Positions 2,149-35,089 of a DNA stretch of 64,000 nt are shown piece after piece. A model generated the notes under the pieces. It saw only the letters and a program-made list of their open reading frames with translations. It had not been told where the DNA came from and searched no databases. Origin of the DNA: a virus (Duplodnaviria > Caudoviricetes); IMG/VR virus record IMGVR_UViG_3300011868_000001, positions 64,001 through 128,000 of that record; one strand, 5' to 3'. Each line of letters starts with the position of its first letter. Within the stretch, counting starts at the first letter, position 1. The position numbers and the translations under genes were made by a program.

Positions 2149-2791
2149 GGACAGGCCCCTGTGGCATGGGAGGGATTTCAATCCCGCGTTTCGTCAACTG
2201 CTGCTCCAGCCAAGCAACAAACTTGATACGTTCTTCTTCCACGTACAGGTTGACTTTCTTCACCCCGTGCATGATGCTGATCTGTACCGCGGTGTTCGTT
2301 CCACCGTTCCATCTGGTCTGTTTCTTATTGGCCGGCTCTGCCCAAAAGATCGTCACCCAGCGTGGAAAACACAACTCCTCCGACAGCACCTGAAATGCAT
2401 TGCGGGTATGGAGGGCGATCCCGCTTGGGAAGAGCCCCTCGAAACTGCCGCGGGCTTTGAAGGCCAGTGCCTTAGCAGCTTCGTAGGTCTCGTAGCGTTC
2501 GGCCTCATGCATGCCATTGAGTGGATCGTGGAAGAGTCCGGCTCGTTGTTTCTTCAATCGGGTGTAGTACACTTGCGCCGGTGGCATGGTGTCGCGTTTA
2601 CCTTGGTTATACCCGAGGTAGAAGTACGTGTCAGAGCCTGGCGCATCGCCTGTACACAGCACGCCGCCAAGCAAGGCCATGCAATGGCCCACCCACATAA
2701 GCGTCGGGACATGCTCCTCTGGAACTTCACGACTGCCTACGCCACACCAAGTGAACGACCATTCCCAACCTGCACTCTTCCACAAATCCAT
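2117..2791 (-). CDS. SLOG/DprA-like (SMF/YpsA-type) nucleotide-binding protein
   Basis: CGVGSRE, TGDAPGSD, LHTRNAFQVL and GGTNTAV motifs typical of phage SLOG-fold proteins; start re-called at MDLWKS. Confidence 0.7.
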   Translation of the reverse strand: MDLWKSAGWEWSFTWCGVGSREVPEEHVPTLMWVGHCMALLGGVLCTGDAPGSDTYFYLGYNQGKRDTMPPAQVYYTRLKKQRAGLFHDPLNGMHEAERYETYEAAKALAFKARGSFEGLFPSGIALHTRNAFQVLSEELCFPRWVTIFWAEPANKKQTRWNGGTNTAVQISIMHGVKKVNLYVEEERIKFVAWLEQQLTKRGIEIPPMPQGPVHAQTEDLHRP

Positions 2792-2916
2792 CTCTAACCC
2801 CCGGCTGAAGCTGCCCAATAGCCCAATAGCGAACCACCAATAAAGCCGAAGTAGGCCATCAGCCAACCTTCTTGTGAAAACATCAGTGCTGTGTCAACGA
2901 CCTGCTCGACCATGGC

Positions 2917-3465
2917 TCATTCCTTCAGTTGTTCACGCAGGGCGCACAGGTCCGGAACTTTCAACTCTGGCGTGGTGATGATGCCTGCGTACTTCTTGAC
3001 CGTGTCGTAATGGGTGATCTCGAAGGGAACGCCGAAGTAACCGTTCTCAAGGATGGTCCTGAGGGTGTCTTCACCTTCCACGTCGGCAAGCAGTTCGGTA
3101 TCGACGATCGCACTCAGTGTAACCGGCGGGATCAGCTGGCCGTTATAAAACGGGGTGTTTTCCGCCTGACGCAATGCCATCTTCAGATGACCCGGCAGCA
3201 CCGGGAAGTTACCTTCGCCACGATCAGCGGCTTCCATGATGAATAGCGAACCCATTAGGGCCCAGTTGTTCATCCACCAAACAAAGATGTGGGTTTCTTC
3301 ATGGCCCTTGGTTTCAACGAAACCCCGACCGGTGATATCGAGCTTCCAGTAACGGTTGTCACGCTCAGTATGGAAGATTTCATCGGCATGCAATTTGCCG
3401 TCAAGGAACGCTAGGTCCAATGCAGCGCGGCTTTCGAACTTGATTACACGGTTGGTGATAGACAT
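2917..3465 (-). CDS. hypothetical protein (182 aa)
   Basis: ORF with GAGG SD and an upstream A-rich promoter-like motif. Confidence 0.75.
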   Translation of the reverse strand: MSITNRVIKFESRAALDLAFLDGKLHADEIFHTERDNRYWKLDITGRGFVETKGHEETHIFVWWMNNWALMGSLFIMEAADRGEGNFPVLPGHLKMALRQAENTPFYNGQLIPPVTLSAIVDTELLADVEGEDTLRTILENGYFGVPFEITHYDTVKKYAGIITTPELKVPDLCALREQLKE

Positions 3466-12296: not shown

Positions 12297-13616
12297 TTAA
12301 TGGGAGGTGTTGAGGGATTTGCGACCGTAAGTCAGCAAGTGGCGTGAGACTGTCAGCAGGTTGGTGGTCATCTGATCGACAGGACCGGTGGCCCAGCTGG
12401 CGTAATTACGGACAAAGCGCAGGACGCTGATGTCGTAGTTATCGCCGTTATTGCTCGTGCGGTTCTGATAGGACTCACCGGCTCGCAGCACCGACTTGAT
12501 CTGACTCTCAATGCGGTTGAGTTTCATGACCTTCTCTTGCGAGTCGATCAGGTCGAGAATCTCGATCACGCGTCGTGCAATGGTTTCTACCTGTTGCCCA
12601 GAGGCAGTCTTGGCAGTACCAGACAACACGTTGCTCTGGTTGACGTTGGTCAAGGCAAACTTGACACCGGTGGTGCGCACAGCTGCTGCAAACCCAAGTG
12701 GATCGGTTTCAGCCAGGGCGCGTTGTTCATTCTCGAGGGTCAGGAAGTACAGGTTCCAGCCACCGATGATGGGCGGTGCTGCCATGGTCAGACGGCGACC
12801 AAAGCGAGGATCACGGTAGACCATGGCCTTGAGTTGACTGGCCAAGCGCTCTACTGGGATTTGCGTGAACAGCTGAGAGACTTCCTTAAGCTTCTCAACC
12901 CCGGTATCGGAGTCTTGCAGCAGGCGCTCAAACTTCTGACCGACATCGATCATGCCCGCACCATAGAGGTTGGTCACGATTCGATACTGATCCAAGGCCG
13001 CACTGACCGAACGGATCAACGCATCAGGGTCAGTGACGATGTTGTCGCCGACGATGAAGGATTTGATTTCCATGCCCAGTTGGACCGTGGGCTGACGTAC
13101 CGTGGTGATGCGGCGAGCCGAGGCATGTTTAGCCAAGTGTTCGGCACCCATGCGCAGTTGTCCACGGAAGGTGGCGATCCGGACCCAGAACTCCTTAAGG
13201 AACTTAAGGACGGCCAAGACAGCGGCGACCAGACGTGCCCACAGGGCTTTCATGCGGTCTTTCAGAGATTCGGTGGAAACCACCCCCATCTCGTGCTCTT
13301 GCAGGGTCGGCAGCAGGTCATTGACACTGATCCCTGAACTACCTACCAGGTTCTCAAAACTGATCACTACGGCCCGTTTGTGGGCTTCTGAGGCGATCTC
13401 GTTGGTGTCGAGGTGAGCAATCAAGCTCTCCAGGGAATCGGTTGCATCGAGCAGTGATTCCAGTTGGGCACGGGCGTTAGACAGATCACGCTCGGCTTCA
13501 AGGACGTCAACGAATCCCTCACTCTCATTGCCCATGACATCAGGCAGTTCTTCTTCAGACATAGCGAATGCTCGTAAAAGGAATGGAGTGTGTAATTCAC
13601 CATAGAATTCGGACAT
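12297..13616 (-). CDS. internal head protein paralog
   Basis: Acidic propeptide, VSTE^SLKDRMKALWARLVAAV; start may lie about 54 nt further downstream. Confidence 0.75.
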   Translation of the reverse strand: MSEFYGELHTPFLLRAFAMSEEELPDVMGNESEGFVDVLEAERDLSNARAQLESLLDATDSLESLIAHLDTNEIASEAHKRAVVISFENLVGSSGISVNDLLPTLQEHEMGVVSTESLKDRMKALWARLVAAVLAVLKFLKEFWVRIATFRGQLRMGAEHLAKHASARRITTVRQPTVQLGMEIKSFIVGDNIVTDPDALIRSVSAALDQYRIVTNLYGAGMIDVGQKFERLLQDSDTGVEKLKEVSQLFTQIPVERLASQLKAMVYRDPRFGRRLTMAAPPIIGGWNLYFLTLENEQRALAETDPLGFAAAVRTTGVKFALTNVNQSNVLSGTAKTASGQQVETIARRVIEILDLIDSQEKVMKLNRIESQIKSVLRAGESYQNRTSNNGDNYDISVLRFVRNYASWATGPVDQMTTNLLTVSRHLLTYGRKSLNTSH

Positions 13617-13676: not shown

Positions 13677-14987
13677 TTAGGCGTCGGCCTTCTCTTCTTT
13701 CTTGGCAGCCTTGCCGTACTGCTTCAGCATCTGGGTGCCGGTGGAAGCAGCGGCCTTGGCAGCAGTACCCATGAAGGACAGGTACTGGTGCGAGCAGCCA
13801 GTGGTCAGACGAGCAGCCTTGTTCAGCTTGGCCAGAACGGACTTGGCGGAAGCGACTTCGTCTTTTTCCAGGGAGTCACCGCTGGCAACGAGCTTGTTAC
13901 CGGCCTTGACGACGTCGTTGATGCCTTTTTCGGCAGCAGCGGCGACGGACTTGGCAGCAACCATGTTCTTGCCGATTTCGATGATCTGGTCGGCCATCTT
14001 CTCGATCTGCTCGACGGACATCTCTTCGAACTCAGTGCCGGCCTTGGCACTGATCGACTTGTCACGCGACAGTTTCAGGGAAGCCTTGGCCAGTACTTCG
14101 AGGTCGGTACCGCCCTTGACGTAGGCTTCCGGCAGGGTCAGGTCGAAGTAGTAGCCGCCAGGCAGCTTGCCCTTCATGTCGTCCGGCAGAGCTGCTTTCA
14201 GGTCGACCTTGGCAGCCGCTTCCTTCAGACGATCCGGATGAACTTCGCCCTTGTAGACCGCCTGAATCAGGGGGCTCAGAGCGGCAGTGACCTTGTTGGT
14301 GTACTGCTTGACGCCGACGTCGAAGCCATGGTTGATGGCCGCGAGGGCTTGAGCCGGTACCAGCTTGCCGTCGACAACCAGGGTGTCAGCAGCAGCGGAA
14401 GTCAGAGAGACCTTACCACCGACCGACTTCTGACCTTTGGCAGCCTGAGCGCGCTTCTTCAGCGACTGACCGGCAGCGATCACAGCCGGACCGGATTTGC
14501 CGATGGTGGCGAAGAACTGCTTGACAGCGTTCCAGGCAGACTGGACAGCGTTGCGGATGGCGTCCCAGATCTTGGACAGCAGTTGCTTGACGTTTTCCAG
14601 CGCTTCTTGGGAAGCAACCAGCTTGTCGCCAGTGCCGCCGAAGGATTCGGTGGAGACGGTGAAGTCTGCAGCGTTGACCGGCAGCTTGCGGGTGGCGATG
14701 GCCAGAGCGCGGCTGTGCATGTCAGCAGCTTGCGGACCCATGCCGCCGTCGGCGATGAAGCTTTCCAGGGAGGAGACCAGGCTTTCCAGGCTCTCACCGG
14801 CTTCAGCCAGTTCTTCGACAGCTTCGTCATGCTCGTCGACGCTGGCTTCGTCGCCACGCACTTCTTCGAGGATTTCGTCGACGGCGACGATGGTTTCTTC
14901 GGTAACCGGGTTGATTTCCTCGTTCTCGGTCAGATCAGCCGATTCCATGGAAATGTTCAGAGCGCTTTGCAGGATCGAGTTACGCAT
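13677..14987 (-). CDS. abundant internal head protein paralog
   Basis: ISMES, SLES, STESFGG, ASQE^ALENVKQLLSKIWDAI; strongly biased codon usage. Confidence 0.8.
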   Translation of the reverse strand: MRNSILQSALNISMESADLTENEEINPVTEETIVAVDEILEEVRGDEASVDEHDEAVEELAEAGESLESLVSSLESFIADGGMGPQAADMHSRALAIATRKLPVNAADFTVSTESFGGTGDKLVASQEALENVKQLLSKIWDAIRNAVQSAWNAVKQFFATIGKSGPAVIAAGQSLKKRAQAAKGQKSVGGKVSLTSAAADTLVVDGKLVPAQALAAINHGFDVGVKQYTNKVTAALSPLIQAVYKGEVHPDRLKEAAAKVDLKAALPDDMKGKLPGGYYFDLTLPEAYVKGGTDLEVLAKASLKLSRDKSISAKAGTEFEEMSVEQIEKMADQIIEIGKNMVAAKSVAAAAEKGINDVVKAGNKLVASGDSLEKDEVASAKSVLAKLNKAARLTTGCSHQYLSFMGTAAKAAASTGTQMLKQYGKAAKKEEKADA

Positions 14988-28937: not shown

Positions 28938-29493
28938 TCACCACTTAAAAGCAGGAGGCAAGCTTTCCAGAGAGGCATCATCTACAGTGGCGCCCGTCTT
29001 TTGAAGCATCCGTTTGAGGTTCTTCTCCCGTTGCTGATCCGAGAACAGGGTGGAAGAATCCCAGCCCCATTGCAGCAGGCCCTGCCGTTGCTTGACATTG
29101 CACTTCTTGTCAGACAGCGAACAACTGGATTTGAGTTGGCCCATGTGCCTTGCTACAAAACTCTTCCAGCGCTTGATCTGCTTATCGTCCTCAGTGCCTA
29201 AACGACGCCCAAGGTAGTATTTGATATACCATTCCCACCAACCTAGCGGGGAGTCTCTGGTTGTCCATCCCTTACGCTGCCATTCTTTCAAAGACTGCCT
29301 GGATTTAATTCCATAGTGATTTATACTCACGTCAGGGTCAGACCCTCGCTTGAGCACTTTCTTGTGGTTTTTTATATTCGGCAGGAATGTCCTGGATGGC
29401 AGAGGTATATATTCCTTCAAATATTCCTTTGTCCAACATCTCCATTGGAGTATACGATGGACAAAAGTCGGGATGCCATAATTTCTTATCCAT
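28938..29493 (-). pseudogene. full-length replacement copy of a conserved hypothetical gene, interrupted by one extra A in an A6 run (29368-29373)
   Basis: Frame 1 MDKKLWHPDFCPSYTPMEMLDKGIFEG...AEYK; frame 2 NHKKVLKR...GWWEWYIKYYLGRR...QIKRW...RQGLLQWG; removing one A restores colinearity with 30204..30479. Confidence 0.7.
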
Positions 29494-30148
29494 TTCCATC
29501 CTCATCTAGCTTTTGGATGAATCTCTTAGCTACTGCTTGCGCAGGCGTCATGCCAGAATTTATCCTATTTAAAATCGTTTGATAAGGTATATCGAACATT
29601 TGTGAGAACTGTTTAATGGACATTTCATTACCGTTATAAATCAATTTACGTGTAGATCGCCTATTATTAGCCTGCTCTAATCGACTGGCCCATCTACAGT
29701 TATCCGGAGAGTACCCTTTGTCATTCTCTATTCTTTCTAAGGTATTACCGCCACAGTTTCCCATGTCCGAGTAAAAGTTTTCAAATGAATTAGTCCAGCG
29801 CGAACATACGGTTATACCACGCCCGCCATATGCGTGATAATTATCTGCGTTTGGATTATTGCATCTGTTTAACATAGCTCTCCATATGCGATATTCTGGA
29901 GAATTGCTCATTCCATGGGTTGTCTTTGTTTCTGTAGCGACCTCTTTATGGTAGCAGCCACAGCTGGTAGTTAAACCACCTTGTAGACTAGCCGCTCTAA
30001 CTTTAACGACGTTACCGCAGATACATGAACAATTCCAGACAACTTCCTTGGAATTAGGTTCTCTTCCAATAACAGTAAGGCGTCCGTAAACAAGACCAGT
30101 TTTATCATGAAATACGCCGGGCTTTGACAAATAACGATTAGGTTCCAT
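29486..30148 (-). CDS. free-standing HNH homing endonuclease (Cys-rich N-terminal domain)
   Basis: GRLTV, WNCSCICG, TSCGC, YGGRGITVCSRW, TLERIENDKGYSPDNCRWA; markedly AT-rich. Confidence 0.9.
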   Translation of the reverse strand: MEPNRYLSKPGVFHDKTGLVYGRLTVIGREPNSKEVVWNCSCICGNVVKVRAASLQGGLTTSCGCYHKEVATETKTTHGMSNSPEYRIWRAMLNRCNNPNADNYHAYGGRGITVCSRWTNSFENFYSDMGNCGGNTLERIENDKGYSPDNCRWASRLEQANNRRSTRKLIYNGNEMSIKQFSQMFDIPYQTILNRINSGMTPAQAVAKRFIQKLDEDGNG

Positions 30149-32411: not shown

Positions 32412-32618
32412 TCATGCCTCCAATACTGGCTCGATGAGCGATTGATCGGAAGGCTTGCGACGCTCATGGGTGATCGCCATGGCAATAATGAATTGCGCTA
32501 CCCCAAGACCTACAGCCCAATGGACTGAGATCAATGCCCCGATAGCTGCAAAGATCACCACTGCCAGCGCCACCAACACAGTACGAAACAGGATGAATTC
32601 CCTAGCTTCCTGCGACAT
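32412..32618 (-). CDS. small two-TM membrane protein
   Basis: Two hydrophobic helices in 68 aa. Confidence 0.7.
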   Translation of the reverse strand: MSQEAREFILFRTVLVALAVVIFAAIGALISVHWAVGLGVAQFIIAMAITHERRKPSDQSLIEPVLEA

Positions 32619-32621
32619 GGA

Positions 32622-33047
32622 TCAGCGCACCATTTCCAGACGTTCGGCCAACAGATCACTCAGTGAGCGCATGAGTGATTCTTGCTCACGCAGCTTGAGG
32701 ATGTGTGGACTGACGAGTTCGACCGAATCGAGGTAGGCGATGAGCTTGGACAGGCGATCATCCAGCTGAGCCTTTTCAGCGACCAGACGCTGGACCCAAT
32801 CTGGGCAATCGGACACATCACCCATGGGCAGGTAGGCGCCTTCAAATACAGCACTGGGCGACCAGCTGATGTAACCATCGTGCTTGGGGTGGTTTGGCTG
32901 CCCCCCATCGGTGTACTCAATCAGATAGCCGGTATCTTCCGGATTTTCGTCAGCCGGAATATCCCACCCGCGGTAGACATTGTAGTCACCGCGGGTCATG
33001 GGCGTTGCCTTGATGATCTTGGTACCGACATAGTGCTGCATTGACAT
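32622..33047 (-). CDS. two-domain phage protein (YxGTK...GYISWSP domain plus crAss001_48-like helical domain), candidate anti-defence nucleotide sponge
   Basis: YVGTKIIKATPMTRGDYNVYRGW...GYLIEY...GYISWSPSAVFEGAY and WVQRLVAEKAQLDDRLSKL...QESLM...LAERL. Confidence 0.6.
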   Translation of the reverse strand: MSMQHYVGTKIIKATPMTRGDYNVYRGWDIPADENPEDTGYLIEYTDGGQPNHPKHDGYISWSPSAVFEGAYLPMGDVSDCPDWVQRLVAEKAQLDDRLSKLIAYLDSVELVSPHILKLREQESLMRSLSDLLAERLEMVR

Positions 33048-33162
33048 CTTCCTTGTTGGCTAGTTATAGGCGGGGAGTTCTCGGTAGCCTGTCTTAAGTG
33101 CCGACGGGGAAGGCACGACAGGAACGGGTGTAGATGGGCCCTCTACCGGACCTCCCCTGTTC

Positions 33163-33290
33163 TGGACGTTGTGGACGGGAACCGAAACCCGTTCCTCCTC
33201 AGCAGTGCTTTCACCGCTATGCGGGCGGCTAACTCAGATGCATTGTCCAAGTAACCTTGCTGAGGCGTTCGTATGTAAACTACCACAACG
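33163..33290 (-). ncRNA. tRNA-like RNA with encoded UCCA end and an approximately 53-nt insertion replacing the anticodon loop
   Basis: CGTTGTGG/CCACAACG acceptor, TA, GTTT/GAAC D-stem, CCTCAGCA/TGCTGAGG stem, ACGGG/CCCGT T-like arm, TCCA. Confidence 0.65.
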
Positions 33291-33583
33291 AACTGGGTTG
33301 GGGAATTGCCCAGTAACGCTCACGTCACCCTAGACGACTACTTGACTGTCGGGGCGTGGATACCAGGTACAATTCCCCAAACTGGGAGGAAGGGCCGGGA
33401 CTTAGGCAGTGATACCTGGGGGAGGGTTCCTTGCCGGGCTGCTGAAGGCCCTGCAACTCACTACCCTCACCCCGGCCCTTCCAAACAGGACGGGAGAGTC
33501 GTCCGACTGGTCAAGGGGACCAATCCAGCACCAGTCATCCGATCGCCGTGACGAAATCGGTGGACGGCTCTCCCTAACTGAGA

Positions 33584-33713
33584 CAAGTAGTCGGAGTCGA
33601 ACCGACTGGATACAGGGTATCCACAGCTACCACCCTTCCTGACCCGATGCCGACAATATGGCTCCAGGAAGCTAAGGCCGAATCTCACGGCGAGCACGGT
33701 TAAGCTGTACTTG
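33584..33713 (-). ncRNA. tRNA-like RNA with a canonical T-arm and an expanded central domain
   Basis: CAAGTA/TACTTG acceptor-like stem; GTCGG-TTCGACT-CCGAC T-arm; GGATAC/GTATCC extra arm. Confidence 0.6.
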
Positions 33714-33787
33714 AATTTAAACCGACTGTCGGGACGGCATCCACCTTTACCGCATGCAAGACCTGCACACGACCAACAGTCGAAAAG

Positions 33788-33862
33788 GGTCTCAGTGACC
33801 AGGACTCGAACCTGGGACTTGGCCTACGGCCTTTAGTTCTAACCGACTGAACTACCACTGAG
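33788..33862 (-). tRNA. tRNA-like gene with shortened anticodon arm (pseudo-tRNA or tRNA mimic; GUA in a 3-nt loop)
   Basis: TCAGTGG/TCACTGA acceptor, TA-GTTC-AGTCGGTTA-GAAC D-arm, CCAGG-TTCGAGT-CCTGG T-arm; anticodon arm only GGCC-GTA-GGCC. Confidence 0.7.
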
Positions 33863-33905
33863 CACGAAATGCTTCGAGAGCGTCCAATGATCGGACGCTC
33901 TGTCG

Positions 33906-33935
33906 CATAGATTACATCCCGCTGTACTTTTTTAC
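33906..33935 (-). promoter_or_regulatory. putative middle/late promoter for the RNA array
   Basis: GTAAAAAAGTACAGC...TATG; similar A-tract motifs lie upstream of other minus-strand operons. Confidence 0.45.
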
Positions 33936-33938
33936 GAT

Positions 33939-34397
33939 TTACTTGTCTTCACCGTCTTCGATATAGCGTTCATAGTACTCGACCAGCTTGCGGTAGGTGT
34001 AACGATCAGTCACGCCTTGCTTGATACACGCCAGAGATGAGTCACGACGAACGCCCTGCTCGAAGAGTAGGCTCTCCAAGGTATCGACAACGGTGTATGA
34101 GCGAATCCGTCCTTCACCACAGTTGACGTAGATAAGCCCCTTGTCCTTGTGCTCGTTGACAAAGTCAAAGATCTTCTTGGCCAGTTCAGGCCGCATGCAG
34201 TGGTCGCGCTCATCCTCGCTCATGTGGTCGCCAGGGAAGAAGTCAATGCGCAGCAGTGGGCGATTGTCTTTGTTCGGGATGGCGGCACCGGGACTGTACT
34301 TATCGCTGATGCTGATCAAAGGCGCATCGATCGGAATCTGACCGACTTTCTTCTTACTGATGTTGGTAAGGCGTAGGGTGGTGTTGGGCGTTATCAT
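33939..34397 (-). CDS. Cx5R (PTP/dual-specificity-like) phosphatase
   Basis: IYVNCGEGRIRS P-loop; LISISD; start re-called at MITPN (ATGA overlap). Confidence 0.8.
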   Translation of the reverse strand: MITPNTTLRLTNISKKKVGQIPIDAPLISISDKYSPGAAIPNKDNRPLLRIDFFPGDHMSEDERDHCMRPELAKKIFDFVNEHKDKGLIYVNCGEGRIRSYTVVDTLESLLFEQGVRRDSSLACIKQGVTDRYTYRKLVEYYERYIEDGEDK

Positions 34398-34555
34398 GCC
34401 GAGGCCTTCTTGGTGAGTTGGTTGTTGGTGCGCTGCTGACGAATCTTGGCGCATTTGACATGGTTATAACGCTTATCGCAACGACGGTGACCACAGACAT
34501 CGCACAGTGCGGTCATAGGGGCGCCGAAACCATTGCTGTTAAATCCACGGGCCAT
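34394..34555 (-). CDS. 53-aa Zn-finger-like microprotein
   Basis: MARGFNSNGFGAPMTALCDVCGHRRCDKRYNHVKCAKIRQQ...; AAGGAG SD; ATGA-coupled to the phosphatase; missed by the ORF track. Confidence 0.7.
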   Translation of the reverse strand: MARGFNSNGFGAPMTALCDVCGHRRCDKRYNHVKCAKIRQQRTNNQLTKKASA

Positions 34556-34570
34556 GCTGGACAGTTCTCC

Positions 34571-35023
34571 TTACTGGGTGGGTGCGCCTGTGGCGCAAAT
34601 GTAGTTGGCTTCAACAAAAGGTAACATCGACAAGTAGACGTACCTGATGTCGTCTTCAAAACTCAGACCGCCGTTACCGCAGCCCATGGGCGGGATGGCG
34701 ATGGTCTTGAATTTATCCGGGTGTCGATTGACCAGGTTTACCAGCTTGTTGAAGTTATGGATCACCAAGTCACGCGGTGACGGGTTGCGCCAGTTCAATT
34801 TGGTGGGCACTAAGAGGTACTTTACCCCTTCGTGCTGATACAGAATGAACTGGGTCGGATCAAGGATGGGGTACATCTTCTTGTAATGTTTGTACAAACC
34901 AGGGATGGTGTCTCGAGCCGTTTTAGCAATCCCGGCGCCCATGGCACCCACCAAATTGATGGTTATGATTACCGTGTCCGCCTCGACACTGAACAAGTCC
35001 TGCTGAACAATCTCCAGGGCCAT
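34571..35023 (-). CDS. macrodomain protein (DarG/Poa1p-like ADP-ribose hydrolase)
   Basis: DLFSVEADTVIITINLVGAMGAGIA, VPTKLNWRNPS, IAIPPMGCGNGGL. Confidence 0.9.
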   Translation of the reverse strand: MALEIVQQDLFSVEADTVIITINLVGAMGAGIAKTARDTIPGLYKHYKKMYPILDPTQFILYQHEGVKYLLVPTKLNWRNPSPRDLVIHNFNKLVNLVNRHPDKFKTIAIPPMGCGNGGLSFEDDIRYVYLSMLPFVEANYICATGAPTQ

Positions 35024-35059
35024 ACTGGGTATCCTTACACGGATTGCTAAGACATGTAG

Positions 35060-35067
35060 ATAATGTA
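35060..35067 (-). promoter_or_regulatory. putative early promoter TACATTAT
   Basis: About 37 nt upstream of the macrodomain start. Confidence 0.6.
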
Positions 35068-35089
35068 CTGTTTCCGGCAAATCGAATAG

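Follow-up and report, generated by a model that had tools for sequence, protein, structure and literature searches.

Transfer RNA (tRNA) genes carried by phages are usually read as codon supply or as a means of replacing tRNAs that host defences cleave. The mascRNA of MALAT1 and the TMER genes of murine gammaherpesvirus 68 are non-decoding tRNA-shaped elements that tRNA-processing enzymes use to excise or define neighbouring RNAs, and in the viral TMER cluster the tRNA-like units are attached to cargo hairpins. The C4 RNA of phages P1 and P7 and the CI RNA of P4 (Rfam C4, RF01695), immunity regulators of temperate elements, are small RNAs that host ribonuclease P (RNase P) cuts out of longer transcripts via a terminal helix plus CCA, and their internal loops are functional. 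In the engineered scaffold of Ponchon and Dardel, the cargo reportedly ends an extended anticodon stem, and the acceptor, D and T arms and the CCA are kept for processing and protection. Two further stable RNAs, RNAC of 139 nucleotides (nt) and RNAD of 119 nt, come from the tRNA cluster of phage T4 and have unknown roles (PMC3014915). The present analysis concerns M5, a 128-nt element on the minus strand of a 64,000-nt stretch of viral DNA (the window; bases 64001-128000 of the 253.7-kb IMG/VR record IMGVR_UViG_3300011868_000001). Its RNA has its 5' end at 33290 and its 3' end at 33163 in window coordinates, and RNA position p equals 33291 minus the window coordinate.

An earlier note on this DNA, made from its letters alone, had described the element as a tRNA scaffold carrying an insert of about 53 nt in place of the anticodon loop. 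Every part it had listed is present on the minus strand, namely an 8-base-pair (bp) acceptor helix, UA, a 4-bp D arm, an 8-bp long stem, AGGA, a 5-bp T-type arm and UCCA (Table 1). The four arms follow each other in tRNA order, and this cloverleaf is the minimum free energy (MFE) structure returned by RNAfold (-45.6 kcal/mol, z-score -2.60, 1 of 200 shuffles as good); the plus strand folds less well (z -1.27, 25 of 200 shuffles as good). The acceptor-type helix comprises 8 bp, all of them Watson–Crick, where tRNA has 7, and an unpaired base of the discriminator type is followed by CCA (33166-33163).

Four related uncultured phages served for comparison, labelled L002/L003/L007, L006/L009, L008/L010 and, more distant, L017; the closest cultured relative is Pseudomonas phage pPa_SNUABM_DT01 (DT01; 67% on a neighbouring protein of 534 amino acids (aa)). 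A covariance model of M5 found one copy each in the genomes of the window, L003 and L006 (139-157 bits) and none in the L008 genome or DT01. When the window copy was aligned with those of L003 (3758-3885) and L006 (11675-11801), 97.3% of the cells at the 37 proposed pairs held standard pairs, versus 38-46% with the partners slid by 1-3 columns. Both sides had changed at seven pairs, a number reached by 0 of 500 shuffles; three of these belong to the long stem, two to head hairpin 1, and one each to head hairpin 2 and the T-type stem. The loops CAAUGCA, xCGCAUx and UUUCGGUU stay invariant and their stems covary, with L006 about 74% identical to the window over the module and 70-74% over the flanking genes. 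The compensatory changes and the conservation together indicate that M5 is a selected RNA structure.

This pattern bears directly on the alternative that M5 is a decaying tRNA pseudogene that acquired an insertion in the anticodon arm and has no function itself. Seven compensatory pairs, some of them inside the insert, and loops that remain invariant at about 74% identity point to selection on structure, and the neighbouring modules covary as well. We therefore regard a pseudogene as improbable, although the likely tRNA ancestry (by a weak model match, see below), the degenerate T and D loops, the lack of a working tRNA in this phage and two close relatives, and the presence of the element in just three known genomes would all be in keeping with one.

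The head formed by the insert consists of two hairpins, the second of which can pair in two registers. Pairing of GCCGC (p62-66) with GCGGU (p74-78) is backed by covariation (C-G to G-C at p66:p74), and pairing of p67-70 with p74-77 is favoured by the single-sequence fold; the hairpin CCGC/GCGG seen by the earlier note is thus present, its register refined to GCCGC/GCGGU by covariation. AUGC in head loop 1 (33240-33243, p48-51) is complementary to GCAU in loop 2 (33219-33222, p69-72), both being invariant, and a 4-bp kissing contact between the two loops is possible. The UGCA of loop 1 is also self-complementary. The three-phage alignment offers no covariation for either the loop-loop contact or the UGCA self-pairing.

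A tiny reading frame begins in head loop 1, raising the alternative of a transfer-messenger RNA (tmRNA)-like or minigene RNA. It reads AUG CAU CUG AGU UAG in the window and AUG CAC CUA AGC UAG in L006, and all three differences within these 15 nt are synonymous and fall at third codon positions; a Shine–Dalgarno-like AAGG/GAAGG stands 8-11 nt upstream, and CAAUG is kept in L008. However, two of the three changes are equally well explained as compensatory changes in a stem, which makes the MHLS frame probably a product of chance. A 4-codon frame is expected by chance in any case, and the frame in L008 consists of 16 unrelated codons. With no G3.U70 alanine identity pair and no tmRNA detected by ARAGORN or Rfam, this explanation appears very improbable.

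Judged from its sequence, M5 is not a tRNA and cannot decode. ARAGORN made no tRNA or tmRNA call, whether in the window or across the entire genome, either by default or with introns of 0-300 nt allowed, and its 240 calls at threshold ps80 are noise. Rfam was searched with the window at the gathering threshold and with 32500-34800 at E ≤ 10, and returned only a tRNA match on another module of the locus, M0, and chance-level microRNA and small nucleolar RNA matches. The tRNA model RF00005 gave no match on M5 at E ≤ 10 in that interval, nor did models for group I/II introns, RNase P, tmRNA, ROOL, GOLLD or ribozymes; the same search on the relatives yielded nothing new. The T-type loop of M5 fails UUCRANY, and the D-type loop is without G18 and G19. 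The architecture of engineered tRNA-scaffold constructs, to which the earlier note had likened the element, is therefore matched in topology, closing helix and encoded CCA, but not in the T and D loops, which are non-canonical, and no detector calls it.

Since the insert sits in the anticodon arm, the usual site of tRNA introns, we considered a working tRNA gene with a short spliced intron, which we find hardly credible. Besides the empty ARAGORN search of the whole genome with introns and the lack of an Rfam tRNA match, taking out the 53 nt would leave an 8-bp helix that lacks a 7-nt loop, U33 and an anticodon. Neither head loop (CAAUGCA, CCGCAUA) offers a U33 or a purine at 37. At 53 nt the insert is, as stated in the earlier note, too short for a group I intron; no intron or ribozyme family matched it, and no bulge-helix-bulge is evident. 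The extended helix also covaries, which argues that it belongs to the mature structure.

By descent, M5 probably derives from a tRNA. Beyond its three own copies, the covariance model matches only a tRNA look-alike of L008 that has no anticodon. This match is weak, at 18.9 bits (E 0.026 by a rough calibration), but its alignment runs from one end to the other and skips only the head. M5 and this look-alike have in common GUGG-UA-GUU...GAAC, the T arm and ...CCA, which suggests descent from a tRNA gene; GUGG-UA-GUU...GAAC is also common to M5 and M0. The window phage and two of its three close uncultured relatives possess no decoding tRNA according to ARAGORN and genome-wide Rfam searches. In DT01, genuine tRNA-Asn and tRNA-Asp genes that include the CCA are located about 1.5 kb downstream of the equivalent position, on the far side of the orthologue of gene 32622-33047.

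These two tRNAs are followed in DT01 by a tRNA look-alike that is not annotated (L015:2762-2837, i.e., MW735835 171762-171836; 23 bits) and has a canonical T arm and the tail AACCCA. Directly before its tRNA-Asn stands a 109-nt module (L015:2233-2341) with a 15-bp closing helix and the tail ACCUAGUU. The look-alike and the 109-nt module follow the same design principle, in a cultivable phage.

M5 is an undescribed family, known from three uncultured genomes. An IMG/VR search with an exact 18-mer and a gapped motif recovered only the three close relatives, and the arrays of the window, L006 and L008 had no blastn match among 50,697 phage records. A single metagenome scan returned three matches, all of them spurious and located in a coding region rich in lysine codons. 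A profile search with the 534-aa neighbour protein added L017 (60% identity), which is without M5. The L017 genome contains a 1.2 kb gene-free stretch in which more tRNA look-alikes of non-canonical form occur, with lengthened anticodon stems; one combines a 9-bp anticodon stem with an 8-nt loop (Rfam tRNA, 41.5 bits), and in another a long hairpin replaces the anticodon arm.

L008, in which the model finds no M5, has at the same position a rod-like interior enclosed by an 8-bp helix of unrelated sequence, UUGAGAAC/GUUCUCAA, with C+CCA after it; the CAAUGC motif occurs in this version too. Helix, N and CCA persist and the interior is replaceable, i.e., the scaffold is kept and the cargo swapped. 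The natural tRNA-scaffolded RNA proposed in the earlier note is partly supported, the compensatory changes marking a selected structure, but the element is not solitary, being one of about six modules, and L008 retains of it only the helix, N and CCA.

M5 is unit 5 of a co-oriented gene-free row, roughly 700-800 nt long, of about six adjacent stem-closed modules (numbered among M0-M6 in Table 1). Span-limited folding of the gap in each phage gave modules of 83-130 nt with closing helices of 7-18 bp and a spacing of 5-8 nt. Long covarying closing helices are found in each of M2-M5, CCA ends in three modules (M3-M5), and a U immediately precedes the closing helix in M3, M4 and M5. The linkers read helix/UCCCA-GU/helix between M3 and M4, helix/C-CCA-GUU/helix between M4 and M5, and helix/U-CCA-GAACA/helix between M5 and M6; the CCCAGTT linker motif showed no clustering elsewhere in the genome. 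Module content varies, with M0 present in the window and L008 but missing from L003 and L006, M1 only in the window and L003, and M3 doubled in L006. The unit of function may be the array rather than M5 alone. A protein-coding reading of the row was rejected, its short open reading frames (ORFs) not being conserved and being broken by insertions and deletions, duplication and absent modules.

The individual modules differ in their likeness to tRNA. M0 is the sole Rfam tRNA match in the genome (33791-33861) and has canonical D and T arms, but is not called by ARAGORN; its L008 homolog carries GGCC-UGCG-GGCC. M1 is without a D arm and gives a weak tRNA-Sec match (20 bits, E 0.94). The tandem duplicates of M3 in L006 (11358-11454 and 11462-11560) both keep an internal CAGCAGC and CCCCA, and their closing helices differ. 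The GGGG.../...CCCC closing helix of M6 covaries in L006, L008 and DT01 (L015:800-879, i.e., MW735835 169799-169878). Unlike the CCA-tailed modules, M6 is probably a separate cis-regulatory leader.

Table 1. Features of the RNA locus and its surroundings (window coordinates unless another genome is named; p, position in the M5 RNA; RBS, ribosome-binding site).
Feature	Coordinates	Strand	Basis or remark
M5, whole module, 128 nt	33163..33290	minus	MFE cloverleaf, conserved, single copy per genome
M5 acceptor-type helix, 5' strand CGUUGUGG	33283..33290 (p1-8)	minus	Pairs with 33167-33174; invariant in window, L003, L006
M5 UA linker	p9-10	minus	Between acceptor-type helix and D-type arm
M5 D-type arm GUUU-ACAUAC-GAAC, 4 bp, 6-nt loop without GG	33267..33280 (p11-24)	minus	Fold and alignment
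M5 long ('anticodon') stem, 5' strand CCUCAGCA	33258..33265 (p26-33)	minus	8 bp with UGCUGAGG; three pairs changed on both sides in L006
M5 insert ('cargo'), 53 nt, two-hairpin head	33205..33257 (p34-86)	minus	Fold and alignment
M5 insert hairpin 1, 7-bp stem, loop CAAUGCA	33232..33252	minus	Loop invariant; L006: two compensatory pairs, two A.A mismatches
M5 4-codon frame, AUG in head loop 1	33229-33243 (p48-62)	minus	MHLS-stop in window and L006
M5 insert hairpin 2, GCCGC/GCGGU, 7-nt loop with invariant CGCAU	33213..33229	minus	L006 C-G to G-C swap; L003 G-U
M5 long stem, 3' strand UGCUGAGG	33197..33204 (p87-94)	minus	Fold, alignment, constrained fold
M5 variable region AGGA	p95-98	minus	Direct reading
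M5 T-type arm ACGGG-UUUCGGUU-CCCGU, 5 bp, 8-nt loop off T-loop consensus	33175..33192 (p99-116)	minus	L006 A-U to G-C swap, loop invariant
M5 acceptor-type helix, 3' strand CCACAACG	33167..33174 (p117-124)	minus	Fold and alignment
M5 unpaired U, then encoded CCA	33163..33166 (p125-128)	minus	U+CCA in window, L003, L006; C+CCA in L008
M0, tRNA look-alike, anticodon arm GGCC-GUA-GGCC (3-nt loop)	33788..33862	minus	Rfam tRNA, 41.2 bits
M1, CAAGUA/UACUUG closing helix stacked on canonical T arm (GUCGG-UUCGACU-CCGAC), large interior	33584..33713	minus	130 nt
M2, GGGAGAG/CUCUCCC closing helix, tail GUCCUGUU	33492..33574	minus	Folding and comparison
M3, 12-bp closing helix, tail UCCCA-GU	33388..33482	minus	RNAalifold: compensatory change in 14/33 predicted pairs
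M4, 11-bp closing helix, then C+CCA+GUU leading straight into M5	33298..33380	minus	RNAalifold, 4 phages: compensatory change in 10/21 predicted pairs
M6, conserved three-way junction, about 86 nt, between M5 and RBS of gene 32622-33047	33072..33157	minus	Comparison
171- and 169-aa genes directly upstream of array	33939-35080	minus	Sequence matches
Free-standing HNH homing-endonuclease gene	29486-30148	minus	phrog_374, E 1e-74; about 3 kb downstream of array
L017 tRNA look-alikes	13368-13451; about 13790-13880 (L017)		In 1.2 kb of gene-free sequence

Tentatively, and giving it somewhat less than an even chance, we favour the reading of M5 as a tRNA-derived, non-decoding module excised by host tRNA-processing enzymes, with the cloverleaf frame as a handling tag and the head as the functional part. 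In model substrates, the least that RNase P requires is a long helix with NCCA behind it and U at -1; we took as its mark a coaxial helix of about 12-13 bp, an unpaired base plus CCA and preferably U at -1. M5 has this make-up, with its 8-bp helix and 5-bp T-type stem, U+CCA, and U at -1 (33291); M4 does likewise, and M3 with a 2-nt spacer. The row resembles a bacterial tRNA operon in which other folded RNAs have taken the place of the tRNAs, and on these grounds we propose that it would be transcribed as a single precursor, that host RNase P would cleave on the 5' side of each closing helix, and that 3' trimming would halt at CCA and set free a stable species about 128 nt in length. In M5, the tRNA frame would then act as a processing and stability handle, and the invariant head loops CAAUGCA and CGCAU would form the working surface. 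Complementarity of the insert to phage sequences, a check suggested in the earlier note, reached at best 12-13 nt (E ≥ 0.37). As no antisense target in the phage rises above chance, a protein- or host-RNA-binding role is the better guess, and during takeover the head would most likely serve as a decoy or sponge that binds a protein or RNA of the host.

Several observations weigh against excision by host enzymes or soften the evidence for the fold. The tRNA elbow is normally read by RNase P and other tRNA-binding factors, and the T-type loop UUUCGGUU together with the GG-less D-type loop leaves M5 without it; with the canonical elbow missing, recognition of M5 as a tRNA by the cell is doubtful. 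Because the acceptor and D helices do not vary among the three cloverleaf phages, neither has covariation support of its own, and all covariation effectively comes from a single diverged sequence, L006. For L006 itself, the single-sequence MFE structure is not the cloverleaf; the constrained cloverleaf, in which the long stem is kept as a 4+5 bp helix, is 1.0 kcal/mol worse. An alternative outer pairing, CCC-A-GUUC/GAAC-A-GGG, would bury UCCA as a bulge in a longer helix; L003 and L006, when folded with their flanks, show it in their MFE structures. Tandem duplication of the modules could have created the (N)CCA linkers as a side effect, and blastn-short of module and insert against the whole phage genome gave only chance-level matches of 9-13 nt. 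Finally, the block 33739-31510 as a whole is 95.5% identical to L003, versus 87.6% upstream.

Because the flanking downstream genes are equally similar, the 97% identity of M5 to L003 is no argument for an exceptional conservation of the RNA. The shared block looks like a recent mosaic exchange between L003 and the window phage. The high identity begins abruptly at 33739, and L003 has a 172-aa ORF (2754-3272) at the place of M0, a pattern suggestive of recombination with its boundary where the RNA array starts.

The main rival is an unprocessed structured leader: the 128 nt would not be excised but would form one domain of a long structured RNA, either a 5' leader of about 700 nt of the downstream gene or a large multi-domain non-coding RNA, with the tRNA shape a relic and the CCA linkers hinges. 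The entire gap 33048-33745 has a strong fold (z -3.2) and contains nothing resembling a promoter or terminator, the modules are spaced by just 5-8 nt, and an outer helix burying UCCA is available. M6, next to the RBS, is kept as far as DT01, as a cis-element would be. However, gain, loss, duplication and interior replacement of modules among relatives speak against one integrated tertiary fold, and in DT01 M6 stays with the gene while the tRNAs and other modules lie elsewhere. L008 keeps helix, N and CCA despite a changed helix and interior, and ROOL, GOLLD, group I/II introns, RNase P and tmRNA were all unmatched at E ≤ 10. On balance, we consider the long-RNA explanation unlikely, though it deserves to be taken seriously.

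The phage is assigned to the phiKZ-like jumbo phages on the basis of split multisubunit RNA polymerase beta genes (phrog_2962, 3015, 3295) and of the baseplate-hub-like 534-aa protein, which has tblastn matches in 223 phiKZ-like phages. M5 sits in an 890-nt gap (33048-33938) flanked by two minus-strand genes, of which the downstream one (32622-33047) encodes a 141-aa crAss001_48-like protein. Upstream of the gap are a 171-aa gene and matches to a phrog 'phosphatase' and, weakly, to a macro domain. The 171-aa protein itself has only a weak phrog_5614 match, and its DT01 orthologue is annotated as a protein tyrosine phosphatase; the 169-aa protein carries the phrog_335 'phosphatase' match and the weak Macro-domain match. 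This macro-domain/phosphatase operon is early-looking, and a set of modification erasers adjoining the RNA row is possible. In the whole 253.7-kb record no TROVE/Ro gene was matched by PF05731, and neither a CCA-adding enzyme nor an RNase P RNA was found in the phage genome.

Together, our results describe a phage that has no decoding tRNA and still maintains, under selection, a tRNA-derived RNA within a row of modules, three of them CCA-ended. If excision by host enzymes is true, such RNAs would constitute a class of phage small RNAs invisible to standard annotation, being neither tRNA nor ORF nor Rfam family, and would provide a natural blueprint for scaffolded RNA expression. Going further, at what we judge a rather low probability, jumbo phages of this clade would possess a natural counterpart of engineered tRNA-scaffold and polycistronic tRNA-guide systems, i.e., an operon of cassettes, several of them CCA-tailed, that hijacks host tRNA maturation to excise and stabilise changing cargo RNAs, which would serve as decoys or sponges against host factors in early infection. 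M5 would be the clearest case of such a cassette, as its tRNA ancestry is still visible.

Among known systems, the engineered tRNA scaffold has the same topology as M5 but keeps the canonical elbow, which M5 does not, and M5 is natural and a member of an array. The C4 and CI RNAs, mascRNA and the TMERs share a logic with M5, and none is a relative. For C4 and CI this logic is the same as that proposed for M5; here, however, there is no Rfam match and no phage antisense target, and the phage is a lytic-type jumbo phage. The mascRNA and TMER elements are eukaryotic, depend on RNase Z and RNA polymerase III, and carry their cargo beside the tRNA-like unit, not inside it. Like M5, tmRNA joins a tRNA-like part to a large non-tRNA part, but M5 has no G3.U70 and no detector call and is far too small. 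The bacterial Y RNA-like YrlA also combines a tRNA-like and a non-tRNA part; its topology is opposite, ending at the anticodon side, and no Ro/TROVE gene is present here.

The nearest precedent is offered by T4 RNAC and RNAD, which like M5 are phage-encoded, non-decoding and about 120-140 nt long. The T4 RNAs are made from the tRNA gene region and directly adjoin tRNA genes on the same strand, and M5 stands in line with the tRNA look-alikes M0 and M1. In RNAC, a T arm lies close to the 3' end and the interior is large and structured; the T loop is the canonical UUCGAAU and no CCA is encoded, whereas M5 shows the reverse, a degenerate 8-nt loop and an encoded CCA. A further difference is that at least five modules stand in a row here, in a phage without decoding tRNA; no relation in sequence came to light, none having been sought. 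The role of RNAC and RNAD has been open for decades, and a broader family with swappable cargo, together with a cultured Pseudomonas relative in DT01, would make that question more tractable.

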